DNA of 64,000 nucleotides from Candidatus Limnocylindria bacterium. Lineage in GTDB: Bacteria; Chloroflexota; Limnocylindria; QHBO01. Positions 34,027 through 53,854 of the stretch are shown here, in pieces. The first letter of the stretch is position 1. Every line of letters starts with the position of its first letter. Location: assembly GCA_044866355.1 (NCBI GenBank), contig JBIOTW010000033.1, positions 13,373 through 77,372 on the forward strand. Direction: 5' to 3'. The translations under genes and the position numbers were made by a program. The notes under the pieces are model-generated. The model had not been told where the DNA came from, ran no database searches, and saw only the letters and a list, made by a program, of their open reading frames with translations.

Positions 34027-35082
34027 GTGGGCATCTTCGATGGCGTCCTGGGAATCTTCAGCCACGACCTGGGGATCGACCTGGGCACCGCGAACACGTT
34101 GGTCACGGTCCGGCATCGGGGCATCGTCATCAGCGAGCCGTCGGTGGTGGCCATGGAAACGCGTTCGAAGCGGGTGCTCGCCATCGGGGCCGAGGCCAAG
34201 CGCATGGTCGGGCGCACCCCGGCCAACATCGTCGCCATCCGCCCGCTTCGGGACGGCGTCATCAGCGACTTCGACGTGACCGAGCAGATGATCCGGTACT
34301 TCATCGAGAAGGTGCACGATCGCTACTTCCGGATCCCGCGGCCCCGTGTCCTGGTGGGGATTCCGTCGGGCGTCACCGAGGTGGAGAAGCGCGCCGTCCG
34401 GGACGCGACCCTGAACGCGCACGCGCGCTGGGCACGCTTGATCGAGGAACCGATGGCCGCCGCCATCGGCGCCGGCCTGCCCGTCAGCGAGCCATCCGGC
34501 TCGCTCATCGTCGACATCGGTGGCGGGACCACCGAGGTGGCGGTCATCTCCCTGGGCGGGATCGTGGTGAGCCGATCCATCCGCATCGGCGGCGACGAGA
34601 TGGACCAGGACATCGTCAACTTCGCTCGGCGCGAGTACAACCTGCTGATGGGGGAGCGAACCGCGGAGGAGATCAAGATCGCGGCCGGCTCGGCCTATCC
34701 CGACACGAACCCACGAACCGTCACCTTCCGCGGGCGCGACCTGCTGACCGGCCTGCCCCGCAGCATCGAGGTGGGGAGCGACCAGATCCGCGAGGCCCTC
34801 GAGCCGTCCGTGGCGGCCATCATCCAGGCCATCAAGGACACCATCGAGGAGACGCCGCCCGAGCTGGTTGCCGACATCATGGACCAGGGCATCGTGCTGG
34901 CCGGCGGGGGCGCGCTCCTGGCCGGGCTGGATCGTCGCGTGGCGGAGTCGACCCAGATGCCGGTCCACGTCGCGGACGATCCGCTGACATGCGTGGTCCG
35001 CGGCACGGGTCGCGTCCTCGAGGAGCTCGACACGTTGGAACGGGTGCTGGTCAGCGAGCAGTACACCCGAGCCCCTCGATAG
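34027..35082 (+). CDS. mreB: Rod shape-determining protein MreB
   Basis: 351 aa actin-fold protein; DLGIDLGTANTLV, GGGTTEVAVISLGG; GTG start 3 nt after the glgE stop. Confidence 0.95.
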   Translation: MGIFDGVLGIFSHDLGIDLGTANTLVTVRHRGIVISEPSVVAMETRSKRVLAIGAEAKRMVGRTPANIVAIRPLRDGVISDFDVTEQMIRYFIEKVHDRYFRIPRPRVLVGIPSGVTEVEKRAVRDATLNAHARWARLIEEPMAAAIGAGLPVSEPSGSLIVDIGGGTTEVAVISLGGIVVSRSIRIGGDEMDQDIVNFARREYNLLMGERTAEEIKIAAGSAYPDTNPRTVTFRGRDLLTGLPRSIEVGSDQIREALEPSVAAIIQAIKDTIEETPPELVADIMDQGIVLAGGGALLAGLDRRVAESTQMPVHVADDPLTCVVRGTGRVLEELDTLERVLVSEQYTRAPR

Positions 35083-35091
35083 GGTCGACCG

Positions 35092-35982
35092 GTGCGCCGC
35101 GTGCCCGGCCTGCCTGGGCTGTCCCGGCTGTCAGGCTCCAGTCCGTATCGGCGCAGCCGGGGAAGGCAGTGGTGGGCGGTGCTCGCGGTGGTATCGCTGG
35201 CCCTGATCGTCGTGTCGGGGACCGAGGCGGTGCGATCGATTCAGCGCGCAACGACCCAACTCTTGAGCCCCGTCCACGGAACGCTGACCGGGATCGGCTC
35301 CGCCGCGGCCGACCTGGTGGAGACGATCGCAGAGATCGATCGGCTGCGGACCGAGAATGACGAGCTGCGCAGCGCCCTCGCCGGCGCGGAGCAGCGCATC
35401 GCCGAGCTCCAGGAAGCCGCGCGAGACAACGCACGCCTACGCGCCCTCCTGGGCCTGCCGCCGGTGCTCGGGTGGGAGCTCCTTCCGGCCCGGGTGACGA
35501 GCGCGGGCACCAGCGTGCTCAGCTGGGAGGTGGGCGTCAACGTGGGTCGAAACGACGGCGTCCGGGTGGGGATGGCGGTGGTGGGCGACGCGGAGGGGGG
35601 CGGCGGGCTGGCCGGAGTCGTCGTCGAGGCCAGCCCGGACAGTGCGGTGGTCCGGCTCGTCGTCGACCCCCGCGCCCGGGTGGTGGCTCGGGACCAGCGG
35701 ACCGAGGCCCTGGGCCTGGTGCAGGGGCAGCCGGGTGGCCAGCTGATCATGACCCAGGTCACGCTCACCGACGAGGTTGCGGTGGGCGACACGATCGTGA
35801 CCGCGGGCCTGGAGCTGGCGGGCGTCGCCGCCAGTCCGTACCCCCGCGGCCTGCTGCTGGGAACGGTCACCGCGCTCGAGGCCGACGCGAACGGCCTGAC
35901 CCAGACCGCGTTCGTCCGCCCGGCCATTGATCCGCGGACCGTGGAATGGCTGATGGTCGTCCTCTCCACCACGATCGACTGA
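35092..35982 (+). CDS. mreC: Rod shape-determining protein MreC
   Basis: 296 aa; N-terminal TM, coiled-coil (IDRLRTENDELRSALAGAEQRIAELQEA), C-terminal beta domains (GDTIVTAGLE). Confidence 0.8.
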   Translation: MRRVPGLPGLSRLSGSSPYRRSRGRQWWAVLAVVSLALIVVSGTEAVRSIQRATTQLLSPVHGTLTGIGSAAADLVETIAEIDRLRTENDELRSALAGAEQRIAELQEAARDNARLRALLGLPPVLGWELLPARVTSAGTSVLSWEVGVNVGRNDGVRVGMAVVGDAEGGGGLAGVVVEASPDSAVVRLVVDPRARVVARDQRTEALGLVQGQPGGQLIMTQVTLTDEVAVGDTIVTAGLELAGVAASPYPRGLLLGTVTALEADANGLTQTAFVRPAIDPRTVEWLMVVLSTTID

Positions 35983-36159
35983 GCCCGGCCGGGTTCGGCG
36001 TCGGGCCTGAGCCGCCCCCGAGCCGGGCCCACGCCGGGGCGTTGCCGGCGCGCACATGGGCCCAAGGTCCCGCGCTCCACGAACCATCGCCCCATGGGTT
36101 CGACCGCCGGCCGCCCGTAGGGTCGGAGCTGGACTTATCAGCTCTCGCGGGAGACCTCG

Positions 36160-38451
36160 TTGCTCGACCTTACGATGCCGAATCCGGCACGGCTCGCCCT
36201 TTCCTTCGGTCTGGCCCTGGCCATGGCCGTTTCGGCTGCCCTGGTGCCCCATTCGGTGCGGGCGGGAGCCGTTGGTCAGAAGGTGGTCGTCATCGTGGGC
36301 CCGGTCGGCGGCGGCTCGATCCAGGACAACTACCTCAACCGCGGTGAGCAGATCGCCCAGACCGCGGAGAACCTGGGCGCGACAGCGGTCCGCGTGTTCT
36401 CCCCGAACGCCACCTGGACGAACGTGATGGCCGCCGTCAACGGCGCCAACATCATCGTCTACATCGGCCACGGCAGCGGCTTTCCGAACCCATACGGGCC
36501 GAACCTGCTGGCGGACCGGACCAACGGCTGGGGCCTGAACCGGATCGCCGGGGCCGACGCGGCCGACCCCACCGGTCACGGCCATAACCTCTCGACCCAG
36601 ATGGTCTACTGCGGCGAGGCCGCCCTCGAGGGCAAGCCGCTGACGTCCTACAACTCGGCGTACTGCTCGGGTGGGCCTATCAGGCCCGCGCCGGGCTTCG
36701 CGATGGTGTACTCCAACGCGTGTTACGCGCCCGGGGCCGGCGAGACGGAGGAAACGACACCCAGCAGCGAGGCGACCGCCCTGGCTCGGGTGGGGTACTT
36801 CTCGCGGCCGATCCTGGCCCTGGGGGGCACCTACTTCGCCAGCGACGTCGGCTCCACGTCGGTGGTGCGGGAGATCCTCGAAAACCCGAACCGGAGCTTC
36901 GGCGAGATCTTCGCCATGGCCAACGGCTACTCGGCGACCGCTCTGCGGATGTTTCCGCACCCGCAGGTCGCCGGCAAGGAAGCCTGGATCCAGAAGACCC
37001 AGGGCCCCGGCGGCCTGTGGAGCTACTGGTATGCCTTCGCGGGCAATCCCAACCAGATGCCCCAGGCCGGGCCTCCGAACACGAACTTCAGCGCTTCGCC
37101 GACGGCCGGCCTCGAGCAGCTGACCGTGTCATTCACCAACAAGACCGCCACCTATGGCCCGACCACCTACGCGTGGGACTTCGATTCCAACGGATCGGTC
37201 GACTCGACTCAGGAGCACCCGCAGTGGGTGTACCCGACGGCCGGCACCTACACGGTGACGATGTCGGCCACGAGCAGCCTGGGTACCGATACGGAGACGA
37301 AGGCGAGCCACATCACGGTTCGGGCGCCCGTGCCGGGCAGGTATGTCCCGCTGGCTCCCGCGCGTCTTCTTGACTCCCGATTCGGCAACGGACTCTCCGG
37401 ACCGTTCACCGGCTTCGCCCCGCGCACGTTCCAGATCGCCGGCCGCGGCGGGGTCCCTTCCAACGCCGTGGCGGTAACCGGCAACCTGACCGTGACTAAC
37501 CAGGCCGGCGCCGGCTACGTCTACGTCGGCCCCGACCCGGTCCAGGTTCCGACCAGCTCGACCCTGAACTTCCCCGCCGGCGACACTCGGGCCAACGGAG
37601 TGACCGTGGCCCTGGGACAGACCGGGAGCCTGTCCGCGACACTCGGCCCGTCGGGCGGCAGCGCCGACCTGATCTTCGACGTGACCGGCTACTTCGTGCC
37701 CACCGGCGGGGCCACCTACTTCGCCGTGGCGCCGGCTCGCCTGCTTGACACACGCGCCGGCAACGGCCTGAGCGGGCCGTTCACCGCCCACACCCCGCGG
37801 ACCTTCCAGGTCAGCGGCCGGGGCGGGGTGCCGGCCAACGCGGTGGCGGTCACCGGCAACCTGACGGTCACCGGCCAGAGCGGCGCCGGATTCGTGTACC
37901 TGGGTCCCGACCCGGTGGCCAACCCGTCGAGCTCGACCCTGAACTTCCCGGCCGCCGACACCCGGGCCAACGGGGTCACTGTCGCGCTGGGCGCGGGTGG
38001 AACGCTGTCGGCGACATTCGGCTATTCCGGCGCGACTGAGCTGATCTTCGACGTGACCGGCTACTTCGTGAACGACGGGTCGGGGGCGACCTTCGTGCCC
38101 CTGTCGCCGTTCCGCCTGCTCGACACGCGGTTCGGCAACGGGCTGAGCGGGCCGTTCAGCGCCCAGAGCCCGCGGACGTTCCAGGTCCACGGCCGAGGCG
38201 GGGTCCCGGCCAGCGCCGTCGCGGTTACCGGCAACCTGACCGTCACGGGCCAGACGGCCTCTGGCTACGCGTATCTCGGGCCGGATCCCCTGGCCAATCC
38301 GCCAAGCTCGACCCTGAATTTCCCGTGGGGCGACACGCGGGCCAACGGCCTGACGGTGGCCCTCGGCGCGGGTGGGGTCCTGAGCGGGACGTACGGCTAC
38401 GCGGGGAGCACGGCCCTCATCTTCGACGTGACCGGGTATTTCAGGCCCTGA
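36160..38451 (+). CDS. Secreted multidomain protein: clan-CD (caspase/gingipain-fold) cysteine peptidase-like domain, PKD domain, then three tandem ~120-aa repeats
   Basis: 763 aa; signal peptide; His-Gly (IIVYIGHGSG) and Ala-Cys (YSNACYAPG) dyad in caspase-hemoglobinase-fold order; PKD motif AWDFDSNGSVDS; three repeats each starting (Y/F)VPL(A/S)PARLLDTR. Confidence 0.55.
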   Translation: MLDLTMPNPARLALSFGLALAMAVSAALVPHSVRAGAVGQKVVVIVGPVGGGSIQDNYLNRGEQIAQTAENLGATAVRVFSPNATWTNVMAAVNGANIIVYIGHGSGFPNPYGPNLLADRTNGWGLNRIAGADAADPTGHGHNLSTQMVYCGEAALEGKPLTSYNSAYCSGGPIRPAPGFAMVYSNACYAPGAGETEETTPSSEATALARVGYFSRPILALGGTYFASDVGSTSVVREILENPNRSFGEIFAMANGYSATALRMFPHPQVAGKEAWIQKTQGPGGLWSYWYAFAGNPNQMPQAGPPNTNFSASPTAGLEQLTVSFTNKTATYGPTTYAWDFDSNGSVDSTQEHPQWVYPTAGTYTVTMSATSSLGTDTETKASHITVRAPVPGRYVPLAPARLLDSRFGNGLSGPFTGFAPRTFQIAGRGGVPSNAVAVTGNLTVTNQAGAGYVYVGPDPVQVPTSSTLNFPAGDTRANGVTVALGQTGSLSATLGPSGGSADLIFDVTGYFVPTGGATYFAVAPARLLDTRAGNGLSGPFTAHTPRTFQVSGRGGVPANAVAVTGNLTVTGQSGAGFVYLGPDPVANPSSSTLNFPAADTRANGVTVALGAGGTLSATFGYSGATELIFDVTGYFVNDGSGATFVPLSPFRLLDTRFGNGLSGPFSAQSPRTFQVHGRGGVPASAVAVTGNLTVTGQTASGYAYLGPDPLANPPSSTLNFPWGDTRANGLTVALGAGGVLSGTYGYAGSTALIFDVTGYFRP
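37343..38448 (+). repeat. Three tandem ~366-nt coding repeats (~120-aa modules) at the 3' end of 36160-38451
   Basis: Near-identical strings recur (ttcgacgtgaccggctacttcgtg at ~37679 and ~38051; gtcaccggcaacctgaccgtcac at ~37480, ~37855, ~38227). Confidence 0.7.
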
Positions 38452-38649
38452 CGACCACGCCCTGACCGCGCGATGACCACGCCCTGACCGAAGGGGAATC
38501 TCGCTCCGGGCCGGTTGAACCCTGGCAGCCGATCGGCCCGGGAGGTTCGTACCATGGGCTTGCGGCCCTCACGTCGGTACGGTGCAGACCGCTGGAGTCC
38601 GGTGCGGTCGCCCCGGCTACCCGGCAGCTGACGAGGTCAATCGCCCGAC

Positions 38650-41517
38650 GTGCGTCGATTCCCCGCACCGAATTCAGTTGCGTTCACGGTCCTGCTGGCC
38701 GTGGCCACGGCGCTCGGCGCACCCCCGCCGGTCAGCGCCGTGGACCCTCCCGCCGGAGGCGTCCCCTGGCCGGTCCCCCCGACAGTGGCAGACGGACCCG
38801 TCACGCTGCCCAACGGGAAGGTGCTCCCCGTCGCGCCCCAGGGGCTCGGCCAACAGCAGTCGGTGCAGGCCGAGATGGAGGCACAGCACGCCCAGGAGGT
38901 CTTTGACTTCTTGCCGGGCGTGACGCCCGCACCGATGGCAGCGGCCGCCCCCGCATCGCTCGCCCGCGTATCGACCACCGGGAATCCGGCTAGCGCATCG
39001 CTGCTGGGACTGGCCGGCCCCAATGCCGCTCCCCGCGCCATCCCCAACCAGGGCCCCGCCGCCATCTACGCCGCCAGCCTGCCGAACGGGCTGCGCAAGG
39101 AGGTCCTCGGCTTCCTGCCGTACTGGATGCTCTCCGCCGATGAGCTGCAGTGGATGCGGTACGACCTGGTCACGACCATCGCCTACTTTGGCGTCGCCGC
39201 TCAGTCCGATGGCACCCTGGCCACCTACTCGACCGGGTGGTCCGGCTGGAACAGCTCCGCCATGACGGGCGTCATCAACGCCGCTCATGCGCGCGGGGTC
39301 CGGGTCGTCCTCACCGTGACCATGATGGCCTGGGATGGGGGAGCCCAGCAGGCTGCCCTGCTAGGCAGCGGATCGGCCCGGGCGCAGCTCGTCAACGCGA
39401 TCGTGGCCGCCGTTCGCGACCGAAACGCCGACGGCGTCAACCTCGACTTCGAGCCGGTTGGGGTGCCCCAACGCGACCAGTTCACTTCATTCGTGCGCCA
39501 GGTCAAGGCGGCTCTCGTGGCGGCCGGTATCGGCTCCTACCTGACCGTGTGCACCATGGCCGGGGCCGGCACCTGGGCCACCGGCTACGACCTGGCCGGG
39601 CTGGTTGCCGCGGGCGCCGCCGACCAGCTGTTCGTGATGGGCTACGACTACAGTTGGTCGGGCTCGGCTCGAGCCGGCGGCGTGGCGCCCATGGACTCGC
39701 CCTACATGCTCGACGTGAACGAGTCGGTCGCGGACTACCTCGACATCGTGCCCGGTTCCAAGGTCATCTGGGGAGTGCCGTACTACGGTCGGACCTGGCT
39801 GACCCAGTCGGATGCGCTGAATGCGTCGACCGTCCCCGGGGCGTCGGGCTCGTCGCGGGCCTACTACTACGTCGGGAACGTGGTGCTTTCCAACCGCTAT
39901 GGGCGGCTCTGGGACGCGGTCGGACAGGTGCCCTGGTTCCGCTATTACGACAGCACCGCCGCGTCCTGGGTCCAGGGCTACTACGACGATGCGGTGTCGC
40001 TCGCCGCGAAGTGGGACATGGTCAACCAGCAGGATCTGGCTGGCACCGGCATGTGGACGCTCCTTATGGATGGAGGCAGCTCGGACCTGTGGAACGTTCT
40101 CGCCAGCAAGTTCCTGACCCCGCTGCCCTTGCCCGTGTCCGAGACCTACGACCCGCCGCGGACCCTCTATTTCGCGGCGGGCACCTACGTTGGCCGCCAG
40201 TTCAACGCCACCGGCGCCATCACCGCCAGTCTCCCGTACACGCTGGCCAACCCCTCGAACGCGCCGACCAGCCAGCGCAGCACGATCCCCAACCAGCCCG
40301 GGAGCTGGTACCACATCACGGCCGGCGTGTGGGCCGGCTACTGGATTCAGGAGTCGGCCGGGACCGTCCTGGGCCCTCCACCAACGCCACCGCCCACGAC
40401 CTTCGTGCCGCTTTCCCCGGCCCGGGTCCTGGACACCAGGATCGGGACCGGGCTGGGTGGGCCGTTCAGCCCGCATAGCCCGCGCACGTTCCAGGTTGGC
40501 GGCGTCAGCGGAGTGCCTGCCACAGCGACCGCGGTCACGGGCACGCTGACGGTTACGAACACGACCCAGCCCGGGTCGGTGTACCTCGGCCCCAACTCGC
40601 TCACGCACCCATCAAGCTCGACCCTGAACCTGCCCGCGGGCGATACCCGGGCCAGCGGTGTCACCGTGGCCCTCAGCCCGAGCGGGGCCCTGAGCGCGAC
40701 GTTCAGCGCGGCAGGGGGCACTACTGACGTGGTGTTTGACGTGACTGGCTACTTTGTGCCCGATTCGAGCGGGACAACCTTCGTGCCTCTGGCTCCCGCC
40801 CGACTGCTCGATACTCGGAACGGCACCGGCCTGGCCGGGCCATTCAGTCCCCACGCCCCGCGCACGATTGCGGTCGCCGGCTCTGGTGGGGTGCCCGCCA
40901 CCGCGACCGCCGTCACCGGCACCCTGACCGTCACCAACGCGAACGCGCCCGGCTATGTGTACATCGGGCCCGACCCGGTTGCGCAGCCGACCAGTTCGAC
41001 TCTGAATCTGCCGGCCGGCGACACCCGCGCCACCGGGGTGACGGTGGCACTGGGCAGTGGCGGGACCCTGAGCCTGACCTTTGGCGCGGCTGCTGGCCGC
41101 GCGGATCTGGTGTTCGACGTGACCGGCTACTTCGTCCCCGGTGGAAGCGGCGCACGCTTCGTGCCACTCAACCCGGCCCGCCTCCTGGACACCCGGATCG
41201 GGAACGGATTGGCCGGCCCGTTCGGCCCCGGCACCCCGCGCACATTCGCGGCCGCCGGCCGCGGCGGGGTGCCGACCACCGCGACGGGGGTCACCGGCAC
41301 GCTGACCATCACCAACTCGACCGCGGGAGGCTGGGCCTACCTCGGTCCCGCGCCCCTCGCGACCCCGTCGAGCTCCACCCTGAATGTCCCGGCCGGCGAC
41401 ACGCGGGCCACCGGGGTGACGGTCGCCCTCGGCACGGGCGGGACCCTGAGCGCGACCACCGGCTACGCGGGCAGCGCCGACTTGGTGTTCGACGTGACCG
41501 GCTATTTCGTGCCCTGA
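38650..41517 (+). CDS. Secreted glycoside hydrolase family 18 (chitinase/peptidoglycan hydrolase-like) protein with three C-terminal ~120-aa repeats of the same family
   Basis: 955 aa; GTG start, signal peptide; GH18 catalytic motif DGVNLDFEP; ~100-aa linker domain; three repeats matching those of the upstream protein. Confidence 0.7.
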   Translation: MRRFPAPNSVAFTVLLAVATALGAPPPVSAVDPPAGGVPWPVPPTVADGPVTLPNGKVLPVAPQGLGQQQSVQAEMEAQHAQEVFDFLPGVTPAPMAAAAPASLARVSTTGNPASASLLGLAGPNAAPRAIPNQGPAAIYAASLPNGLRKEVLGFLPYWMLSADELQWMRYDLVTTIAYFGVAAQSDGTLATYSTGWSGWNSSAMTGVINAAHARGVRVVLTVTMMAWDGGAQQAALLGSGSARAQLVNAIVAAVRDRNADGVNLDFEPVGVPQRDQFTSFVRQVKAALVAAGIGSYLTVCTMAGAGTWATGYDLAGLVAAGAADQLFVMGYDYSWSGSARAGGVAPMDSPYMLDVNESVADYLDIVPGSKVIWGVPYYGRTWLTQSDALNASTVPGASGSSRAYYYVGNVVLSNRYGRLWDAVGQVPWFRYYDSTAASWVQGYYDDAVSLAAKWDMVNQQDLAGTGMWTLLMDGGSSDLWNVLASKFLTPLPLPVSETYDPPRTLYFAAGTYVGRQFNATGAITASLPYTLANPSNAPTSQRSTIPNQPGSWYHITAGVWAGYWIQESAGTVLGPPPTPPPTTFVPLSPARVLDTRIGTGLGGPFSPHSPRTFQVGGVSGVPATATAVTGTLTVTNTTQPGSVYLGPNSLTHPSSSTLNLPAGDTRASGVTVALSPSGALSATFSAAGGTTDVVFDVTGYFVPDSSGTTFVPLAPARLLDTRNGTGLAGPFSPHAPRTIAVAGSGGVPATATAVTGTLTVTNANAPGYVYIGPDPVAQPTSSTLNLPAGDTRATGVTVALGSGGTLSLTFGAAAGRADLVFDVTGYFVPGGSGARFVPLNPARLLDTRIGNGLAGPFGPGTPRTFAAAGRGGVPTTATGVTGTLTITNSTAGGWAYLGPAPLATPSSSTLNVPAGDTRATGVTVALGTGGTLSATTGYAGSADLVFDVTGYFVP
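40404..41514 (+). repeat. Three tandem ~370-nt coding repeats at the 3' end of 38650-41517, same family as 37343-38448
   Basis: ttcgacgtgaccggctacttcgtc at ~41113 and ~41491 and tttgacgtgactggctactttgtg at ~40738 recur with the upstream gene's repeat ends. Confidence 0.7.
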
Positions 41518-43224: not shown

Positions 43225-43856
43225 GTCGGCTGCTGGTCGCCACCAATAACCCGGGAAAGCTGGCCGAGTATCGGCGCCTGCTGGCGCCCCTGGACGCGGA
43301 CGTGGTGAGCCCCGGCCAGATCGGCCTGGTGATGGACGTGCTCGAACCGTACGCGACCTACGCGGAGAACGCCGCCGCCAAGGCGACGGCCTTCTGCCTG
43401 GCGTCGGGCGAGATCACGCTGGCCGACGACTCCGGCATTGAGGCGGCGGCCCTCGACTGGGGGCCCGGCGTCCACTCGGCCCGGTCCGCGCCACCAGGCG
43501 GTCCCCCCGGTCCGGATCTGCTGCTCACCCGACTGGCCACTGCCACGGACCGTCGGGCGCGGATGGTGTGCTGGATCGCCCTGGCCGTGCCGGACCCGAG
43601 CCGCCGCACCGCTCCGCGAGTCGAGCTGTTCGAGGGCGTCATGGAGGGCCGGATCGCCACCCAGCGCCGGGGTGAGGGCGGCTTCGGGTATGACCCCATC
43701 TTCGAGCTCCCGGACGGGCGGACCACGGCCGAGATCCCCGAGGCCAGGAAGGATGCCCAGTCCCATCGCGGTCGGGCGGTGGCGTCCGCGTTGCCGCGCC
43801 TGCGGGAGGTCCTCTCGGCCCGCGCTAGAATGCCGGCGACAGCGGAGGACGCATGA
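43221..43856 (+). CDS. rdgB: Non-canonical purine NTP pyrophosphatase (RdgB/HAM1)
   Basis: GTG overlapping the rph stop; [31 protein letters not shown]. Confidence 0.85.
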
Positions 43857-44455
43857 ACGAAGGCTCGTCCGTGCGCATCCACCCAACGGCCGACGTGTCC
43901 GCCGACGCGGTCATCGGCCCCGGCACCAGCATCTGGAACCAGACCCAGGTCCGCGAGCGTGCCCGGATCGGGTCGGACTGCGTGCTCGGCAAGAACGTGT
44001 ACGTCGACCTGGACGTGGTCGTGGGGGATCGGGTCAAGATCCAGAACAACGCCTCGCTGTTCCACGGTGTGACCGTCGAGGACGGCGTGTTCATCGGTCC
44101 CCACGTATGCCTCACGAATGACCGATTGCCCCGCGCGGTGAACCCGGACGGATCAGCCAAGACCGATGCCGACTGGGACGTGGGCCCCATTCGAGTCCGC
44201 ACCGGGGCCGCGCTCGGCGCGGCCAGCGTGGTCCTGCCGGGGGTCACCATCGGGCGCTGGGCGCTGGTCGGAGCGGGCAGCGTGGTGACCCGCGACGTTG
44301 CGGACTACGCGATGGTGCTCGGCAACCCGGCCCGTCGGATCGGGAGCGCCTGCCCCTGTGGAGAGCCCCTGCGCGACGGGCCGGACGGGACGCCGTTCAG
44401 CGGTCCGTGCCCCAGCTGCGGGCGCCAGTTCCCCCCGGTGGAGGATGCCGCGTGA
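43853..44455 (+). CDS. Left-handed beta-helix (hexapeptide) sugar N-acetyltransferase, WbpD/WlbB-like, with C-terminal Cys4 zinc ribbon
   Basis: 200 aa; hexapeptide repeats (IGPGTSIWNQTQV, IGSDCVLGKNVYV, IGRWALVGAGSVV); C-terminal CPCGEP...CPSCG. Confidence 0.7.
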   Translation: MNEGSSVRIHPTADVSADAVIGPGTSIWNQTQVRERARIGSDCVLGKNVYVDLDVVVGDRVKIQNNASLFHGVTVEDGVFIGPHVCLTNDRLPRAVNPDGSAKTDADWDVGPIRVRTGAALGAASVVLPGVTIGRWALVGAGSVVTRDVADYAMVLGNPARRIGSACPCGEPLRDGPDGTPFSGPCPSCGRQFPPVEDAA

Positions 44456-45552
44456 AGGTCGTCTCGGTGGTGGGTGCCCGACCCCAGTTCATCAAGGCGG
44501 CGCCGGTCAGCCGCGTCCTGCGGGAAGACCATCACGAGGTCCTGGTTCACACCGGCCAGCATTACGACGACGCGATGAGCGCGGTGTTCTTCCGCGATCT
44601 CGACATGGCGCCACCGGACCGCGATCTGGAGGTCGGCAGCGGGACCCATGGCCATCAGACCGCCGAGATGCTGCGCCGCCTGGAGCCGCTCCTGACCGAG
44701 GAGGCGCCGGACGTGGTCCTGGTCTACGGGGACACGAACTCCACCCTGGCCGGCGCCCTGGTCGCCGCCAAGATGGTGGATCCCGCGGGGCGCCGGCCGT
44801 GGCTCGCCCACGTGGAGGCCGGCCTGCGCTCGTTCAACCCGGCCATGCCCGAGGAGCGCAACCGGATCGTGGCGGATCATCTGTCCGACCTGGCCCTGGC
44901 GCCCACTCCTGCGGCCATGGCCAATCTCGCGCGCGAGGGCCTGGCTGAACGCGCGGAGATGGTCGGCGACGTCATGGTGGACGCCTTTGTGGCCGCGTCC
45001 GGGCGCGCCGACGACCATTTGCCGGCCGAGGCCGAGCCCGGGCCGTACCTGCTCCTCACCCTCCACCGCCCATCCAACGTGGATGATCCCGCGCGCCTCG
45101 ACGCATGGCTGACCGCGGTGGCCGGGGAGGCGGGTCGCGTCCTGTTCCCGATCCATCCGCGCACGCGGGGCGTCCTCGAGCGGGCGGGGATCGAGGCACC
45201 GTCGGGCGTCACCCTCCTCGAGCCGCAGGGCTACCTGGCGATGGTCGCCCTGGAGCGCGCCGCACGGGTCATCGCCACCGACTCGGGCGGGGTTCAGAAG
45301 GAGGCGTACCTCGCCAGCGTTCCCTGCGTCACCCTGCGCGCCGAGACTGAGTGGGTGGAAACCCTCGAGACCGGCTGGAACCGGCTGTGCCCCGAGCCCA
45401 GCGACGCTCCAGCCGCCATCCGCGCCGCCGAGGCGTTCGACCGCACGGCACCGAGGCCGGCACTCTTCGGCGACGGGCAGGCCGCGGGTCGGATCGTCGC
45501 CGCGCTGGAGCGCCTGACCTTAAGCCGCGCCTCCGCCCTGGTGGCGTCGTGA
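44452..45552 (+). CDS. UDP-N-acetylglucosamine (or diacetamido-uronate) 2-epimerase, WecB/WbpI-like
   Basis: GTG overlapping the upstream stop; KVVSVVGARPQFIKAAPV, HTGQHYD, GDTNSTLAGALVAAK, DSGGVQKEA. Confidence 0.85.
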   Translation: MKVVSVVGARPQFIKAAPVSRVLREDHHEVLVHTGQHYDDAMSAVFFRDLDMAPPDRDLEVGSGTHGHQTAEMLRRLEPLLTEEAPDVVLVYGDTNSTLAGALVAAKMVDPAGRRPWLAHVEAGLRSFNPAMPEERNRIVADHLSDLALAPTPAAMANLAREGLAERAEMVGDVMVDAFVAASGRADDHLPAEAEPGPYLLLTLHRPSNVDDPARLDAWLTAVAGEAGRVLFPIHPRTRGVLERAGIEAPSGVTLLEPQGYLAMVALERAARVIATDSGGVQKEAYLASVPCVTLRAETEWVETLETGWNRLCPEPSDAPAAIRAAEAFDRTAPRPALFGDGQAAGRIVAALERLTLSRASALVAS

Positions 45553-46655
45553 TCCCCATCGCCCGCCCGCTGCTCGGCCCCGAGGAGCAGGCGCTGGTCG
45601 CCGAGACCCTGGCTTCCGGCGCCCTGGCCCAGGGGCCGCGCGTTCGGGAGCTCGAGGAGCGGTTCGCGGAATTCGTGGGCGTGCCGCACGCGGTGGCCAC
45701 CTCGTCGGGGACGACCGCCCTGCACCTGGCGCTCCTGGCCGCGGGGGTCGGACCCGGGTTGGAGGTCGTCACCGTTCCGTTCACCTTTATCGCCAGCGCC
45801 AGCAGCGTCGTGTACACCGGCGCCCGCCCGGTCTTCGTCGACATCGATGCCCGCTCGTTCACGATGGACCCGGCGCAGGTCGAGGCCGCCATCACGCCTC
45901 GCACCCGGGCGATCATGCCGGTCAGCCTGTATGGGCAGCCCGCCGACCTGCCGGCGATCGAGGACATCGCCCAACGCCACGGGCTGGCCCTCATCGAGGA
46001 TGCGGCACAGAGCCACGGCGCCGCCCTCGACGGACGCCGCTCGGGGAGCTGGGGGCAGGGCGTCTTCAGCTTCTACCCGACCAAGAACATGACCGCCGCC
46101 GAAGGCGGCATGATCACGACCTCTGATCCAAGCCTCGCCGAATGGTCCCGTCTCCGCCGGGAGCACGGAATGAAGGTCCGCTACCGCCATGACGTGCTGG
46201 GGTACAACTTCCGGATGACCGACATCCACGCCGCCATCGGCCTGGCCCAGCTCGACAAGCTGCCCGCCTTCAACGCCCGCCGGATGGCGATCGCCGGCCG
46301 CTACGCCCAGTCGCTGCGGGGTGTCGTGACGCCGTGGCAGCGTCCAGACGCGACTCATGTCTTCCACCAGTACACGTTGCGGGTGGTGCAGCGCGATGCC
46401 TTCGTCGAGCGCTTGCGCCAGCGTGGGGTGGGGACCGGCGTCTACTACCCGATCCCGGTCCACCGCCAGCAGCCGTTCATCGACCTGGGCTACGGCGATC
46501 AGTCGTTCCCGGTCAGCGAGCAGCTGACCGAGGAGGTCGTCTCCATCCCGGTCCACCCCGGGCTCAGCGACGAGGACGTGGACACGGTCATCGAGGCGGT
46601 GAACGCGACCACATCCGAGCTGGGTTCGCACCCGGAGAGTCGGGTGGCGGCGTGA
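45549..46655 (+). CDS. DegT/DnrJ/EryC1/StrS PLP-dependent sugar aminotransferase, WbpE-like
   Basis: GTG overlapping the upstream stop; SSGTTALHLAL, FSFYPTKNMTAAEGG (PLP lysine). Confidence 0.85.
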   Translation: MIPIARPLLGPEEQALVAETLASGALAQGPRVRELEERFAEFVGVPHAVATSSGTTALHLALLAAGVGPGLEVVTVPFTFIASASSVVYTGARPVFVDIDARSFTMDPAQVEAAITPRTRAIMPVSLYGQPADLPAIEDIAQRHGLALIEDAAQSHGAALDGRRSGSWGQGVFSFYPTKNMTAAEGGMITTSDPSLAEWSRLRREHGMKVRYRHDVLGYNFRMTDIHAAIGLAQLDKLPAFNARRMAIAGRYAQSLRGVVTPWQRPDATHVFHQYTLRVVQRDAFVERLRQRGVGTGVYYPIPVHRQQPFIDLGYGDQSFPVSEQLTEEVVSIPVHPGLSDEDVDTVIEAVNATTSELGSHPESRVAA

Positions 46656-47650
46656 CCGCCGAGCCGCTGCGGGCGGCGGTCATCGGTCTGGGCATGATGG
46701 GCGCGAATCACGCCCGCGTCCTCAACGAGCTGCCCAACGTTGACCTGGTGGCCGTCGCAGACCTCGATCCGGCCGCGGTCCTGCGGGCGACCTCGGGACG
46801 CACGGCACAGGGTTACACGTCGGCCGCGGACATGCTGGCCGCCGAGAAGCCGGACCTCGTGGTGGTGGCGGTCCCCACCTCCCTGCACCTGCCGACCACG
46901 CTCATGGCCCTCGAGGCGGGGGCGCACGTCCTGGTCGAGAAGCCCATCGCGGCCGAGCGAGACCAGGCCGAGCAGATGATCGCCGCGGCCGAGTCGGCGG
47001 GTCGCATCCTGACCGTGGGCCACATCGAGCGCTTCAACCCCGCCATCCGCGAGCTCAGCCGGCGGCTGGACGCCGGCGAGATCGGCCGCGTGTTCCAGGT
47101 CCGTGCATCCCGCCTGGGCCCATTTCCGGCGCGCGTCCGCGACGTGGGGGTCGTGGTCGATCTCGCGCCGCACGACCTGGACGTCATGCGCTACCTCCTC
47201 CGCTCGGAGCCGATCCGGCTGTACGCCGAGACGGAGCAGCGGATCCACACCGACCACGAGGACCTTTTTACTGGGCTCATCAAGTTCGCCTCGGGGGCCG
47301 TCGGCCTGCTGGAGATCAACTGGCTGACTCCCACCAAGGTCCGCACCCTGAGCGTGACCGGCGAGCACGGCATGTACACCGCCGACTACATCACCCAGGA
47401 CCTCGTGTACCACGCCAATCCGGAGTCGGGCTCGGTGGCCGAGGGCGAGATCATCTGGCGCCACATCAAGCGTCAGGAGCCGCTGGTGGTCGAGCTGACC
47501 GAGTTCGCGGCCTCCATCCGGGATGGGGGCGCGCCGCCCGTCGACCCGCGTGACGCCCTGACCGCCCTGCTCCTGGCGCGCGCCATGGTGGATGCCGCGG
47601 AACGCGGCGTGATGCTCGGGCGGGACGAGCTCGCCCAGATGCTGCGTTGA
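46652..47650 (+). CDS. Gfo/Idh/MocA-family NAD-dependent sugar oxidoreductase, WbpB-like
   Basis: GTG overlapping the upstream stop; Rossmann AAVIGLGMMGANHARVL, EKP motif LVEKPIA. Confidence 0.8.
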   Translation: MTAEPLRAAVIGLGMMGANHARVLNELPNVDLVAVADLDPAAVLRATSGRTAQGYTSAADMLAAEKPDLVVVAVPTSLHLPTTLMALEAGAHVLVEKPIAAERDQAEQMIAAAESAGRILTVGHIERFNPAIRELSRRLDAGEIGRVFQVRASRLGPFPARVRDVGVVVDLAPHDLDVMRYLLRSEPIRLYAETEQRIHTDHEDLFTGLIKFASGAVGLLEINWLTPTKVRTLSVTGEHGMYTADYITQDLVYHANPESGSVAEGEIIWRHIKRQEPLVVELTEFAASIRDGGAPPVDPRDALTALLLARAMVDAAERGVMLGRDELAQMLR

Positions 47651-48921
47651 AGATCGCCGTCGTTGGGCTGGGGCACATCGGTCTCCCACTGGCGGTCCAG
47701 TACGCCAGCCGTGGCCACCAGGTGATCGGCTGCGACGTCGACGCCCGGGTGGTGGAGGCCATCAACCGCGGGGAGTCGCCCCACGCCGACGAGCCGGTGC
47801 TGGCCGAGCGTGTCCCCCAGCTCGTGCGGGACGGCCTGCTGAGCGCTACGACCGACGACGAGGCCGGCGTCCGCCAGGCCGAGGTGGTGGTCGTCATCGT
47901 CCCGGTGGTCGTGGACGACGCGCGCGAGGTGGACTACTCGCACATCGACGCCGCCACTCGCGAGGTGGCGCGAGGGCTCCAGCCGGGAACCCTGGTCATC
48001 TACGAGACGACGCTTCCGATCGGGACGACACGGGACCGCCTGGGACCGATGCTGGAGGCCGGGTCCGGCCTCCAGCTGGACCGCGACTTCGCTCTGGCCT
48101 TCTCGCCGGAGCGGGTCCTCGTCGGCCGGGTCCTGCTGGACCTTCAGCGCTACCCGAAGATCGTGGGCGCTACCAGCCCTGAGGGCACGCGGCGGGCGGT
48201 GGATTTCTACACCGCGGTCCTGGAGCCAGGAACCGAGGTCCGGGCCATGGCCAGCGCCGAGGCCGCGGAGATGACGAAGCTGGCCGAGACGACGTACCGC
48301 GACGTGAACATCGCTCTCGCCAACGAGTTTGCGCAGGTCGCGGCGCGGCGCGGGATCGACGTGACGGAGGTCATCGCGGCGGCCAATTCCCAGCCGTACA
48401 GCCATATCCACCAGCCGGGGGTGGGAGTCGGCGGCCACTGCATCCCGGTTTACCCGCACCTGCTGTTCAGTGCCGAGCCCGGCCTGCAGCTTCCGCCCCT
48501 GTCCCGGGCGGTCAACGACGGGATGGCGGCCTACGCCGTGGGCCAGCTGGCGGAGGCCCTGGGCTCGCTCCAGGGGGAGTCGGTGCTGATCCTGGGAATC
48601 GGCTATCGGGGCGACGTCCAGGAGGACTTCTTCAGCAGCGCCTTCCTGCTCCGCGAAGCGCTGCAGGCCGGCGGCGCCCGCACATACGCGCACGACCCGT
48701 ACTTCGACGCCGACCACCTCCGCCATCGTGGGTTCGAGCCCTACGACCTGGCCGCTCCGCAACCCGTGCGCGCCGCGATCCTCCAGGCAGCCCACACGGC
48801 CTACCGCGACCTGGACCTCGCCTCGATCCCCGGACTGGAGGTGGTGCTGGACGGCCGAAACGCCCTGGACCGGGAGCGCGTTGAATCGGCCGGCCTCCGC
48901 TACCTGGGAGTCGGGCGCTGA
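47647..48921 (+). CDS. UDP-glucose/GDP-mannose dehydrogenase-family nucleotide-sugar 6-dehydrogenase, WbpA/WecC-like
   Basis: 424 aa; MKIAVVGLGHIGLPLAV, catalytic Cys region GVGVGGHCIPVYP. Confidence 0.85.
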   Translation: MKIAVVGLGHIGLPLAVQYASRGHQVIGCDVDARVVEAINRGESPHADEPVLAERVPQLVRDGLLSATTDDEAGVRQAEVVVVIVPVVVDDAREVDYSHIDAATREVARGLQPGTLVIYETTLPIGTTRDRLGPMLEAGSGLQLDRDFALAFSPERVLVGRVLLDLQRYPKIVGATSPEGTRRAVDFYTAVLEPGTEVRAMASAEAAEMTKLAETTYRDVNIALANEFAQVAARRGIDVTEVIAAANSQPYSHIHQPGVGVGGHCIPVYPHLLFSAEPGLQLPPLSRAVNDGMAAYAVGQLAEALGSLQGESVLILGIGYRGDVQEDFFSSAFLLREALQAGGARTYAHDPYFDADHLRHRGFEPYDLAAPQPVRAAILQAAHTAYRDLDLASIPGLEVVLDGRNALDRERVESAGLRYLGVGR

Positions 48922-48980
48922 CGACGGACGAGCCCGAGCCGCCTCCACGCGTCGGCCTGGCCGCCGGCCGCGGCGTCTGG

Positions 48981-49706
48981 GTGGTCCTGCCCACGTTCAA
49001 CGAGCGCGAGAACCTGCCTCAGGTCAGCGAAGCGATCTTGGCGGCCCTCCCCGAGGCTCGGCTCCTGGTCGTCGATGACCGCTCTCCCGACGGGACCGGG
49101 GATCTGGCCGACACACTGGCGGCCGCCAATCCGCGGATCGAGGTCCTCCATCGGCCGGCCAAGCAGGGCCTGGGGGCGGCCTATCGGGACGGATTCCGGC
49201 ACGTGCTCGACAAGCCCGGGACCGCCGCCATCATCCAGATGGACGCCGATCTCAGCCACGATCCAGCTGATCTGCCACGTCTGCTCGCGCCGCTCATGCG
49301 GGACGCGGACCTCGTCCTCGGCACCCGCTGGATGCCCGGGGGCGGGACCCGCGGCTGGCCGTGGCATCGGCGCCTGATCAGCCGCGGCGGAACGCTCTTT
49401 GCGCGAACGGTGCTTCTGCTTCCGTATCGCGACCTGACCGGCGGCTTCAAGGCCTGGCGCCGCGACCTGCTGGACGCGATCCGCCTCCGCGAGGCCGATG
49501 CCCATGGCTATGGGTTCCAGGTCGAAACGACCTGGTGGGCGCACCGCCGGCGAGCCGCGATCCGGGAGGTCCCGATCATCTTCCGTGAGCGGGTGGCGGG
49601 GACCTCGAAAATGACCGGCTCCATCGTCCGCGAGGCGATCATCCTCGTGCTCCGCCTCCGGTGGCAGGCCGTGGTACGGAGGCTCAGCCGGCCGCGTGGC
49701 GACTGA
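48981..49706 (+). CDS. GT2 polyprenyl-phosphate glycosyltransferase (Dpm1/Ppm1-like)
   Basis: GTG start; VVLPTFNERENL, DDRSPDGT, MDADLSHDP (DxD). Confidence 0.8.
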   Translation: MVLPTFNERENLPQVSEAILAALPEARLLVVDDRSPDGTGDLADTLAAANPRIEVLHRPAKQGLGAAYRDGFRHVLDKPGTAAIIQMDADLSHDPADLPRLLAPLMRDADLVLGTRWMPGGGTRGWPWHRRLISRGGTLFARTVLLLPYRDLTGGFKAWRRDLLDAIRLREADAHGYGFQVETTWWAHRRRAAIREVPIIFRERVAGTSKMTGSIVREAIILVLRLRWQAVVRRLSRPRGD

Positions 49707-52652: not shown

Positions 52653-53854
52653 GCGAGACTCGCGTCGCGCTGGTGGCCCACGCGTCGCTCCCCGACGACA
52701 CGCGGGTGCGACGCCAGGCCGAGGCCCTGCGCGACGCGGGCTATGGCGTGGACCTGTTCGGGCTGCGCGATCCTGGGCAGCCGGAGGTCGAGGAGTGGCG
52801 CGGGCTGCGCATCGTGCGGCTGCCGGTCCGGCGTTCGTTCACCGGCTTCGCGGGGCACCTGGCCGAGTACCTGGCCTTCGCGAGCCTGGCCGCCGTCCGG
52901 CTGGCCGCCGAGCATCGGCAGCGGCGGTACCGGCTGGTGCAGGTAGCGACCCTACCCGACTTTCTCGCCTTCGCCGCGCTGCCCGTTCGGCTGACCGGCG
53001 TTCCGCTGCTCCTCGACCTGCACGAGGACATGCCGGCATTCTTCCGAGACCGGTTCGACAGCCCGGTCCTGCTGCCCCTGGTGGGTATCGTGAACCTGAC
53101 GGCGCGGGCGAGCGCTGCCATCGCGGACGCGATCATCACCGTCCATGAGCCGCTTCGCGAGCTGGCAATCGGACGCGGCGTTCCGGCGCACCGCATCTCG
53201 GTCGTCATGGACAGCGCTGACGAGCGCCTCTTCGACCCTGCCCGCCATCCGCGTCGGCCGTTCATGGAGGACGGCCGGCTGCGGCTCATCCACCACAGCA
53301 ACCTGCAGCGGATCTACGGCCTCGACCTGGCGGTGGAAGCCGTGTCGCTGCTCCCCGCGGATCTGCACGCGCACCTCGACGTCTACGGCGACGGTCCGTT
53401 TCGCGGCCAGGTCGAGGCCGCCATCGCCCGCCACGACGTCGCCGACCGCGTCACGCTCCACGGCCGGGTTGCGCAGGACGCGCTGCCCGAGCTCCTGGCT
53501 TCGGCCGACATCGGTCTGGTCCCCACCCGGCCCGAACCGTACATGGCCTACTCGCTGTCGACCAAGCTGATCGAATACGTGGCCATGGGGGTTCCGGTCA
53601 TCGCCAGCGAGCTGCGGACCTTCCGGTCGCACTTCGACGCGGCGGCCGTCCGCTACGTTCCCGGCGGGGATCCGCGCGCGCTGGCGACGGCGATCGAGGC
53701 GCTTGCCGCCGACCCGGCCGGTGCCGAGGCGCTGGCCATCGAGGCCCGACGCCAGGCCGAGCCGTATGCCTGGGCCGTCCAGTCCGCCCACTACCTGGCC
53801 CTTGTCGACGGTCTCCTGGAGCGCGGTAGACTCGTCGCATCCGGCGGGGTGTAG
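52649..53854 (+). CDS. Glycosyltransferase family 4
   Basis: GTG overlapping the mazG stop; GT-B C-terminal domain with STKLIEYVAMGVPVIAS; annotated 3' end overlaps the tRNA 5' end by 10 nt. Confidence 0.75.
   Translation: MSETRVALVAHASLPDDTRVRRQAEALRDAGYGVDLFGLRDPGQPEVEEWRGLRIVRLPVRRSFTGFAGHLAEYLAFASLAAVRLAAEHRQRRYRLVQVATLPDFLAFAALPVRLTGVPLLLDLHEDMPAFFRDRFDSPVLLPLVGIVNLTARASAAIADAIITVHEPLRELAIGRGVPAHRISVVMDSADERLFDPARHPRRPFMEDGRLRLIHHSNLQRIYGLDLAVEAVSLLPADLHAHLDVYGDGPFRGQVEAAIARHDVADRVTLHGRVAQDALPELLASADIGLVPTRPEPYMAYSLSTKLIEYVAMGVPVIASELRTFRSHFDAAAVRYVPGGDPRALATAIEALAADPAGAEALAIEARRQAEPYAWAVQSAHYLALVDGLLERGRLVASGGV

Follow-up and report, generated by a model that had tools for sequence, protein, structure and literature searches.

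Directly downstream of mreB and mreC, two adjacent genes of a Candidatus Limnocylindria bacterium encode secreted proteins with unrelated catalytic domains, here termed A and B, each of which ends in three copies of the same repeat of about 120 residues, and the question raised by this locus is what such a shared triplet does for its carriers. Limnocylindria are an abundant class of soil and freshwater. A preliminary description had listed the two open reading frames beside mreBC, the three terminal repeats of each protein, a PKD domain in A, and a GH18 hydrolase in B, and all of these are present in the 64-kb stretch of DNA that was analyzed (the window; Table 1). A six-frame HMM scan of the window recovers exactly six repeat copies of 119-120 residues (domain E 1e-60 to 1e-65) and no others.

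Table 1. Features of the A-B locus and its genomic context (positions within the 64-kb window).
Feature	Position	Strand	Basis
mreB and mreC (context, directly 5' of A)	34027..35982 (mreB 34027-35082, mreC 35092-35982)	+	ORF list
Gene A, secreted: signal peptide, putative Cys-peptidase-like domain, PKD, three repeats (763 aa)	36160..38451	+	ORF list
Signal peptide of A (aa 1-35, ...ALVPHSVRA/GA cleavage)	36160..36264	+	plausible, read from sequence by eye
A N-terminal domain, putative clan-CD-like cysteine peptidase	36265..37059	+	weak Peptidase_C25 match and invariant His/Cys
PKD domain of A (aa 309-387)	37084..37320	+	PF18911 E 3e-8; PF00801 E 2.4e-7
Repeat A1 (aa 395-514)	37342..37701	+	HMM score 207
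Repeat A2 (aa 520-638)	37717..38073	+	HMM scan; modeled alone
Repeat A3 (aa 645-763), end of protein A	38092..38448	+	HMM scan
Gene B, secreted GH18 glycosidase, YdhD/YaaH/SleL subgroup, then second unnamed module and three repeats (955 aa)	38650..41517	+	ORF list, Pfam, PDB
Signal peptide of B (aa 1-30, ...APPPVSA/VD cleavage)	38650..38739	+	plausible, read from sequence by eye
GH18 catalytic domain of B (aa 216-474)	39295..40071	+	PF00704 E 5e-30
Second unannotated ~74-aa module of B (DPPRTLYF...GVWAGYWIQESAGTVL)	40150..40371	+	no Pfam match
Repeat B1 (aa 585-704)	40402..40761	+	HMM scan
Repeat B2 (aa 711-830)	40780..41139	+	HMM scan
Repeat B3 (aa 837-955), end of protein B	41158..41514	+	HMM scan
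Sugar-nucleotide/glycopolymer genes (context, 3' of B)	43853..49706	+	Pfam

Pairwise, the six repeats share 62-77% amino acid identity, with 57 invariant columns. They had also been described as highly similar even at the DNA level, which overstates their resemblance: DNA identity is only 69-76%, and conserved residues use identical codons in 57% of cases, compared with 47% expected from codon bias. These values indicate that the copies are old and that their DNA similarity mostly reflects protein constraint and GC3 bias. Recent duplication or gene conversion was rejected as the source of this similarity, since synonymous sites are near saturation.

Protein A is 100% identical to the public protein P0390, whose start is the ATG at 36175, and its orthologues carry the database name 'PKD domain-containing protein [Ca. 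Limnocylindria]'; a profile search with A recovers PKD domains in the PDB. The earlier designation of A as "caspase-fold peptidase-like" goes too far. In its favor, His104 (36469-36471, motif IVYIGHGSG) and Cys188 (36721-36723, motif VYSNACYAPG) form a GHG...NAC pair that is invariant, within IVYIGHG and VYSNAC, across 22 orthologues whose identity falls as low as 26%, and there is a Peptidase_C25 match below the Pfam threshold (E 0.015, 15 bits versus a cutoff of 23); against it, the N-terminal domain has no PDB match by sequence or profile. A putative peptidase is what stands.

The GH18 assignment of B is secure (105.7 bits for PF00704 versus a cutoff of 29.6). Its motif DGVNLDFE (39430-39453) keeps the catalytic Glu and the flanking Asp of the DxxDxDxE signature, with the middle Asp replaced by Asn. 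The nearest solved structure is YdhD (3cz8, E 4.8e-24), and other close matches are the GH18 structure 4wiw and SleL/YaaH (4s3j/4s3k); judged by sequence, the domain is of the peptidoglycan-acting YdhD/YaaH/SleL type. Between GH18 domain and triplet lies the second unnamed module, trailed by a Pro-rich linker. In P0130, a syntenic GH18 orthologue, a fourfold tandem array of this ~74-aa module forms the C-terminus and takes the place of the triplet. SH3_3 was considered as another triplet substitute in GH18 orthologues and rejected, as it sits between GH18 and the triplet and both co-occur.

The repeat itself had been placed outside known families, and wider searches bear this out: Pfam-A, NCBIfam, and PHROGs hold no real match. 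With hmmscan at E values up to 10, whole proteins and single repeats give nothing beyond spurious Crystallin, HEV_ORF1, Tail_tube, and ecotin fragments, all short, sub-threshold, and located on the FVPLxPxRLLDTR strand. Among Pfam and NCBIfam profiles, SLH, CW_binding_1/2, LysM, SH3_3, LGFP, PG_binding, fn3, PKD, and Big give no significant match to the repeat, and a six-repeat profile searched against all PDB sequences yields only marginal compositional matches to nanobodies (best E 6e-5). No confident match to a wall-binding or Ig-like family thus emerges, and carriers are overwhelmingly signal-peptide proteins: by a crude heuristic, 173 of 222 have signal-peptide-like N-termini, most of the negatives being truncated gene calls. 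The family is very large: its sequence clusters number in the tens of thousands, and weaker hits (E between 1e-30 and 1e-3) amount to about 22,000. Since neither Pfam nor NCBIfam nor the PDB contains it, it represents a sizeable annotation blind spot; public records call its carriers "hypothetical," "PKD repeat protein," or, wrongly, "ecotin" or "crystallin." It extends to cultured Actinomycetota (Streptomyces, Arthrobacter, Curtobacterium, and Paenarthrobacter), and a set of polar motifs (RxxDTR, N76, and D113-x-x-G-Y) is kept across the two phyla at about 30-38% overall identity.

Modeled alone, repeat A2 is predicted with high confidence as a nine-strand beta-sandwich (pLDDT 97.5, pTM 0.89). 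The predicted fold is a jelly roll that is closest to a trimeric adhesin tip, sharing fold and topology with the C-terminal tip of the Bd2133 MAT fiber of Bdellovibrio bacteriovorus (8OK3, 8OND). Identity in the structural alignment is only 13-14%, and the six-repeat profile does not find Bd2133 among all PDB sequences, so that the two are without detectable sequence homology. They also differ in that the Bd2133 tip takes one domain from each of three fiber chains, whereas a single chain supplies all three copies here, and in that Bd2133 belongs to a diderm predator, whereas the repeat hosts are Chloroflexota and Actinomycetota. The next structural tier contains CBM6/22/35/36, the CBM-like domain of the peptidoglycan O-acetylesterase Ape1, and jelly rolls of the C1q/BclA type and of capsids. 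The CBMs and the Ape1 domain match clearly less well than Bd2133; they are single-domain, show no rule of three, and do not normally accompany proteases, oxidoreductases, or toxins.

Such a rule is evident for the repeat. Among 260 high-scoring proteins, 232 have three copies, nine have six, and one has nine, with four or five copies in six proteins, some of which are truncated gene calls; three of three Actinomycetota proteins examined have three copies. Relatives of the GH18 protein have one copy (17 proteins) or three (16), and only one has two. When B1-B3 are modeled jointly, all five models reach pTM 0.92 and pLDDT 96.1, with the linkers absorbed into strands, although AF2 is able to over-pack homologous repeats. 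From this pTM and from copy numbers of 1, 3, 6, and 9 we infer a closed three-fold geometry, and the triplet is predicted to be the functional unit, a rigid single-chain pseudo-trimer. Under this model, single-copy forms such as P0123, with its C-terminal repeat, would need to homotrimerize. The copies within a triplet are not equivalent and have been moved as a unit: when the nearest neighbor of a repeat is sought outside its carrier protein, the two agree in ordinal position in 66% of cases, and still in 52% where the remaining portions of the proteins are unrelated (chance 33%, p 8e-27). A clean duplication of the triplet is seen in two six-repeat proteins, and in three proteins the triplet blocks lie 350-520 residues apart; several other six-repeat arrays show uniform 6-residue linkers and lack a 1-4/2-5/3-6 signal, a pattern that would equally fit a continuous array. 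P0254 and P0324, which appeared to be stand-alone triplet proteins, are probably fragments, as they are located on contigs of about 1.3 kb.

A predicted body this rigid and compact could serve as a structural scaffold without any external ligand, that is, as a pedestal, as an oligomerization or lattice unit in an S-layer-like coat, or as a spacer that projects catalytic domains. Capsids, C1q/BclA proteins, and Ena fibers are classic assemblies of trimeric jelly rolls, and arrays of six and nine repeats would fit such a use. The strong conservation of RxxDTR, N76, and D113-x-x-G-Y is, however, of a kind seen more often in binding sites or ion-bearing axes than in passive spacers, and a terminal place on dozens of unrelated enzymes recalls anchoring modules. 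We consider a pure scaffold improbable, and a scaffolding role would in any case be compatible with anchoring.

That two unrelated catalytic domains share the module turns out to be part of a wider pattern, in which the triplet behaves as a shuffled accessory module. Its partners include GH18, Amidase_2, SpoIID, S8, M14, M11, PQQ/GSDH, Cu-oxidase, metallophosphatase, Kelch, and CAP domains, and on these many unrelated secreted proteins, wall hydrolases and proteases among them, it is placed terminally, mostly at the C-terminus and sometimes at the N-terminus behind a leader. About 90% of triplets finish exactly at the C-terminus of the protein. This placement and the highly diverse secreted cargo recall the C-terminal domains of the T9SS, and the triplet might on these grounds be read as an export or sorting signal for a dedicated machinery, comparable also to sortase or PEP-CTERM-type signals. 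Such a role is very improbable: the carriers already have Sec-type leaders; at about 360 residues in three copies, the triplet far exceeds the size of known sorting domains; some triplets (P0252, P0253, P0270, P0282, and the L083 RHS protein) are internal or follow right behind a normal N-terminal signal peptide; and comparison of gene neighborhoods reveals no conserved partner beside the A-B genes that could represent secretion or attachment machinery.

The closest parallels in proposed role are instead found in SLH and CWB2 modules, in both of which three tandem, non-interchangeable motifs are needed; SLH motifs adopt a pseudo-trimeric fold, and the same has been proposed for CWB2 (PMC4973711). 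Like the triplet described here, SLH triplets (PF00395) consist of three tandem copies at a protein terminus and are borne by a wide variety of secreted enzymes and surface proteins; their hosts are monoderm/Terrabacteria lineages, and they confer non-covalent wall retention (PMC4973711). CWB2 (PF04122) offers a parallel in its position-specific tandem threes and in its cargo spectrum, with Clostridioides difficile having 29 such proteins that include peptidoglycan hydrolases and proteases (PMC4973711). There are also differences: SLH motifs are helical, about 55 residues long, bind a pyruvylated secondary wall polymer, and have no sequence or fold similarity to the ~120-residue repeat, and CWB2 binds the anionic polymer PSII and has no sequence similarity to it.

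We favor, with a probability of roughly one half, the view that the triplet targets or retains secreted enzymes at the cell envelope, to which it would tether them in the way of SLH and CWB2 triplets. Three tandem jelly-roll copies joined by linkers of 5-6 residues would assemble as a single rigid body, probably a closed single-chain pseudo-trimer resembling the homotrimeric Bd2133 fiber tip. This body, itself presumably non-catalytic and moved by evolution as a unit among secreted proteins, would after Sec export attach, without covalent linkage, to an envelope glycopolymer of repetitive structure, either peptidoglycan or a secondary polymer linked to it; avidity would come from as many as three equivalent sites. 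The cargo retained at the cell surface would be the putative Cys-peptidase and the YaaH/SleL-type GH18 protein beside mreBC and, elsewhere, amidases, SpoIID, subtilisins, oxidoreductases, phosphatases, and RHS toxins.

Architecture, gene neighborhood, and analogy suggest a wall polymer as the candidate ligand. The gene order mreB-mreC-A-B is kept in relatives, and the fixation of the A-B pair beside mreBC across the class suggests a housekeeping role in the envelope. Downstream of B, the glycopolymer genes comprise a hexapeptide acetyltransferase, a UDP-GlcNAc 2-epimerase, a DegT aminotransferase, a Gfo/Idh/MocA oxidoreductase, a UDP-sugar 6-dehydrogenase, and a GT2 (Pfam), and in L080 and L081 the pair is likewise trailed by these genes. 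The mreC-A and A-B gaps were also searched for a regulatory RNA or terminator, which was rejected: neither gap has an Rfam match at E<=1, and consensus promoter and terminator sites are no commoner than in shuffled controls. A lineage-specific secondary polymer is less credible as the ligand, given that the module is conserved in two phyla whose wall polymers differ.

An independent pointer to the wall could have come from phages, and none was obtained, since no phage endolysin or receptor-binding protein with the module was found. IMG/VR (pattern search and tblastn) and 50,697 phage records (tblastn) contain no relatives, and a BFVD fold search gives only weak matches, the few named ones of which include phage tail-fiber, tail-collar-fiber, and C1q-like proteins; a link to endolysin wall-binding domains or receptor-binding proteins was rejected accordingly.

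The analogy with Bd2133 cuts against anchoring, as the closest solved structure is an adhesin for other cells and not a wall anchor. Instead of anchoring its cargo to the producer's own wall, the triplet could be a lectin or adhesin that recognizes something outside the cell (polysaccharides of the environment, necromass, or other microbes' surfaces) and directs its cargo to substrate or prey in the manner of a CBM. For the PQQ dehydrogenase, oxidase, and phosphatase cargo, surface retention and binding of an external substrate or particle fit equally. Taken as a whole, we regard external targeting as unlikely, though it deserves more weight than the scaffold and sorting-signal readings: cargo that has no polysaccharide substrate (PQQ/GSDH dehydrogenases, Cu-oxidase, phosphatases, and CAP proteins) is hard to explain in this way, as is the fixed position beside mreBC, and classical CBMs lack the threefold organization.

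If envelope anchoring is correct, the triplet would define the surface proteome of Limnocylindria and would be a third independent instance of a pseudo-trimeric anchor made from three tandem repeats, which would suggest convergence on three-fold avidity for wall polymers of repetitive structure. A more specific version is possible, and we advance it only tentatively: a rule-of-three envelope anchor structurally unrelated to SLH and CWB2, built as a single-chain jelly-roll pseudo-trimer with evolutionary ties to trimeric adhesin tips, that would be the main means of surface display in Limnocylindria and be used also by Actinomycetota, including for RHS toxins, with RxxDTR/N/DxxGY forming either three equivalent glycan sites or an ion-bearing three-fold axis. 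Limnocylindria are uncultured (PMC10608941); cultured Streptomyces, Arthrobacter, and Curtobacterium also carry the module, which makes the anchor hypothesis directly testable, and the module could then serve as a tag for surface display or targeting.

The RHS carriers offer a further positional parallel. In Gram-positive RHS/WapA toxins, an N-terminal slot holds a putative wall-anchoring domain, which in Streptococcus suis consists of LysM, DNRLRE, and a further domain and not of the ~120-residue repeat (PMC12704120). In Paenarthrobacter, the triplet follows the signal peptide, precedes the RHS repeats, and thereby occupies this same slot, a correspondence of position only.

Directly downstream of mreB and mreC, two large open reading frames lie back to back and encode the secreted proteins A and B. 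The ORF list and Pfam agree with the preliminary description on this arrangement, on a PKD domain in A (residues 309-387) and on a GH18 domain in B (residues 216-474, E 5e-30). Both N-termini run from a basic through a hydrophobic stretch into an AxA-type leader. The catalytic domain of B, with the motif DGVNLDFE, is nearest to B. subtilis YdhD, with SleL/YaaH also related, and judged by its sequence it groups with peptidoglycan-acting GH18 enzymes, not with classical chitinases. The N-terminal domain of A gave a sub-threshold Peptidase_C25 match in Pfam (E 0.015) and no confirming match in Pfam or, by sequence and profile, in the PDB. Its IVYIGHG and VYSNAC motifs are nevertheless invariant across 22 orthologues. 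Clan CD peptidases carry a His-Gly/Ala-Cys signature; the GHG and NAC motifs of A fit it, which suggests that the domain is a cysteine peptidase of clan-CD type, scarcely picked up by current profiles. This domain may represent an undescribed peptidase family.

The final ~370 residues of A and of B are covered by no Pfam domain, and NCBIfam contributes none. Three repeat copies end each protein, as first described, giving six units of 119-120 residues joined by Gly/Ser/Thr-rich linkers of 5-6 residues, with the third repeat forming the exact end of both proteins. The units share 62-77% protein identity and 57 invariant columns, and an HMM scan of all 64 kb in six frames recovered these six only (domain E 1e-60 to 1e-65). 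An initial impression that the copies are highly similar at the DNA level was overstated: pairwise DNA identity is 69-76%, and codon sharing at conserved residues is 57% against 47% expected from codon bias. The copies are ancient.

Coordinates of the genes, residues and modules discussed, in the window unless a locus is named; repeats A1-B3 are anchored on the FVPLxPxRLLDTR and FDVTGYF strands
Feature	Position	Strand	Remark
mreB	34027-35082	+	directly upstream of mreC, then A-B
mreC	35092-35982	+	between mreB and gene A
Gene A	36160-38451	+	763 aa
A His104	36469-36471	+	GHG motif, after hydrophobic strands
A Cys188	36721-36723	+	NAC motif, after hydrophobic strands
Repeat A1	37342-37701	+	
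Repeat A2	37717-38073	+	
Repeat A3	38092-38448	+	
Gene B	38650-41517	+	955 aa
Second unnamed module	40150-40371	+	B aa 501-574, one copy, between GH18 and triplet
Repeat B1	40402-40761	+	
Repeat B2	40780-41139	+	
Repeat B3	41158-41514	+	
Glycopolymer genes	43853-49706, 53960-56288		WbpA/B/E/D/I-like set, GT2, Bac_transf, Wzy_C
RHS-core toxin-type gene with triplet	L083 7794-12293		Paenarthrobacter ureafaciens plasmid pB, conjugative
PKD protein gene with triplet	L084 4680-7262		Streptomyces sp. NBC_00354 plasmid; adjoins 'immunity 49 family' gene

The repeat also proved to lie outside the named families, as initially supposed. Pfam, queried with each copy alone up to E 10, returned only Crystallin and ecotin fragments, which are noise, as were all matches in PHROGs and those of a six-repeat profile against every PDB sequence (a nanobody at E 6e-5); the motif strings had no relevant match in the literature. 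On sequence comparison, the repeat is not a member of any tested wall-binding, Ig-like or CBM family. By model, it is a jelly roll like the tip of Bd2133, its closest solved structure, with which no sequence homology was found.

When 1.84 billion cluster representatives were scanned exhaustively with HMMER, 25,575 related proteins emerged at E<=1e-3, 15,869 at <=1e-10 and 3,746 at <=1e-30. Public records call them 'spore germination protein YaaH', 'PKD repeat protein' or 'hypothetical protein' and, wrongly, 'serine protease inhibitor ecotin'. The ecotin name of P0029, P0419 and P0463 (NF002987, E 6.7e-4) and the Pfam Crystallin/Tail_tube assignments (PF00525, E 2.6e-5) are false positives from short matches inside the repeat, on the strand FVPLxPxRLLDTRxG (e.g., window 38092-38140). 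Nearly every close relative comes from a Chloroflexota MAG that bears the label Candidatus Limnocylindria or Limnocylindrales, and single genomes can have many repeat loci (one bin gives at least 8, a few of them neighbours on one contig). Genomes of this uncultured class are ~2.4 Mb with ~69% GC (PMC10608941), in line with ~70% in the window. The whole triplet also occurs in cultured Actinomycetota, with 30-38% identity and coverage that is mostly 86-99% (tblastn, plasmid records: Streptomyces 19, Curtobacterium 4, Arthrobacter/Paenarthrobacter 4, Aeromicrobium 1). The family is a large annotation blind spot, and hypotheses about it can be tested in these cultured hosts. Residues kept across both phyla (R8, D11-T12-R13, G17, G34, P39, P70, S73, N76, G80, D113 and G116-Y117) include a polar set, which hints at a ligand site or at a three-fold core of polar character.

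Several lines of evidence point to the triplet as the unit. Among 260 proteins from two sets ranked by repeat score, 232 carry exactly three full copies, nine carry six, one carries nine and six carry 4-5, some of the last on truncated gene calls; the scarcity of 4-5 copies is informative because such proteins would outscore those with three. Three copies were likewise found in all three actinobacterial proteins examined, and GH18 relatives have one (n=17), three (n=16) or two (n=1). The B1-B3 model (371 aa, 110-sequence alignment) reached pLDDT 96.1 and pTM 0.92; each of the five models scores 95-96, and the linkers merge into lengthened strands. The triplet is therefore predicted to be rigid, as flexibly linked domains would not yield such a pTM. 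For the repeats of 250 triplet proteins, the closest repeat in any other protein held the same ordinal position 66% of the time, and 52% of the time where the non-repeat regions are unrelated (chance 33%, p ~8e-27), which marks the triplet, at sequence level, as inherited unit-wise. Ten proteins have six or nine repeats: in two of them a triplet has plainly been duplicated (1-4, 2-5, 3-6), the middle linker being longer, and three have triplet blocks 350-520 residues apart; the rest have uniform 6-residue linkers and are uninformative on this point. No single PDB chain matches the triple arrangement. A closed three-fold geometry is inferred from the pTM, from copy numbers that follow 1/3/6/9 and from the nearest structural relative being a homotrimer. 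As a rival reading, a purely structural or lattice-forming unit seems improbable to us.

The triplet lies at the extreme C-terminus in ~90% of proteins. Among Actinomycetota, it closes a 1,320-aa Streptomyces protein and comes behind a PKD domain in a 498-aa one. Its highly varied partners include A-type PKD/peptidase-like proteins, GH18, Amidase_2, SpoIID, Peptidase_S8, M14 and M11, PQQ and GSDH propellers, multicopper oxidase, FAD oxidoreductase, metallophosphatase/purple acid phosphatase, Kelch/glyoxal-oxidase-like and CAP domains, with fn3, PKD, CarboxypepD_reg, Big_1 and TIG as spacers. Such a terminal position could suit a C-terminal sorting signal, but this is very improbable, since a minority of triplets are internal or directly follow the signal peptide and the proteins have ordinary Sec leaders: a crude heuristic found one in 173 of the 222 with an N-terminal non-repeat region, the remainder being mostly gene calls that are clearly cut short, or leaders without K/R. 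A Paenarthrobacter RHS-core protein of 1,499 aa has the order signal peptide, triplet, RHS repeats. The triplet there occupies the slot of the 'potential cell wall anchoring domain' described for Gram-positive RHS/WapA toxins (PMC12704120). Its presence on this protein and beside an immunity gene hints at a polymorphic-toxin link in Actinomycetota.

In SLH and CWB2, three tandem, non-interchangeable motifs act as one unit, SLH as a pseudo-trimer, and are carried by S-layer proteins as well as by peptidoglycan hydrolases and proteases (PMC4973711). The triplet shares this design logic in both copy number and cargo, and by analogy would bind the wall. With its striking rule of three, the repeat forms a new domain family and would bring a new fold to an established architectural role, that of an envelope anchor. 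A binding or targeting module that works as a triplet is the likely core of this reading. We assign a probability of about 50% to the reading in full, which is the best supported: a non-catalytic, single-chain pseudo-trimeric module would keep enzymes exported by Sec attached to a repetitive glycopolymer of the envelope. The ligand is its weak step: because the triplet is conserved across two phyla, peptidoglycan itself or a widespread feature is favoured over a lineage-specific polymer. The module is absent from endolysins and receptor-binding proteins in the phage collections searched, which takes away one potential independent indication that the wall is the target. An adhesin or CBM directed at external glycans or other cells is, in our estimate, rather unlikely.

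Two other Limnocylindria contigs keep the order mreB-mreC-A-like-GH18, followed by an opposite-strand GT4 and by rph, ham1, acetyltransferase, 2-epimerase and DegT. This conserved mreBC adjacency suggests that A and B are putative elongation-associated wall-remodelling enzymes. In the window, mreB-mreC is followed directly by A and B, not by mreD/pbp2/rodA (34027-41517). On one of these contigs, the syntenic GH18 orthologue P0130 (L080 10481-14146) lacks the triplet; it has fn3, SH3_3, FlgD_ig and Big_5, and ends in four tandem copies of a second unnamed module (aa ~890-1221); accessory modules have therefore been swapped at a fixed locus. This module (~74-85 aa, motif DPPRTLxF...GYQF...GxWAGYWxxES) has no Pfam match; possibly it derives by divergence from an SH3-like binding domain.

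Downstream, as in relatives, A-B adjoins a complete Wbp-like set (by Pfam, UDP-sugar 6-dehydrogenase, Gfo/Idh/MocA oxidoreductase, DegT aminotransferase, hexapeptide acetyltransferase and UDP-GlcNAc 2-epimerase), and its accompanying GT2, GT4, Bac_transf and Wzy_C genes identify a surface-glycopolymer cluster. The enzyme set would synthesize UDP-2,3-diacetamido-mannuronic acid; the product of the cluster is probably an acidic diacetamido-uronic-acid surface glycopolymer. The intergenic gaps hold no Rfam element, and promoter- or terminator-like sites are no commoner there than in shuffled controls. Right after the gene A stop, the short sequence GA(C/T)GACCACGCCCTGACCG is directly repeated, both copies lying within ~40 bases (38453-38490) and having no Rfam match. 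The window also encodes a UPF0182 membrane protein (21207-24149, +), a GGDEF plus HD-GYP-type signalling protein (26295-28010, -), a GlgE-like maltosyltransferase just 5' of mreB (31930-34023, +) and a single tRNA (53845-53918, +).
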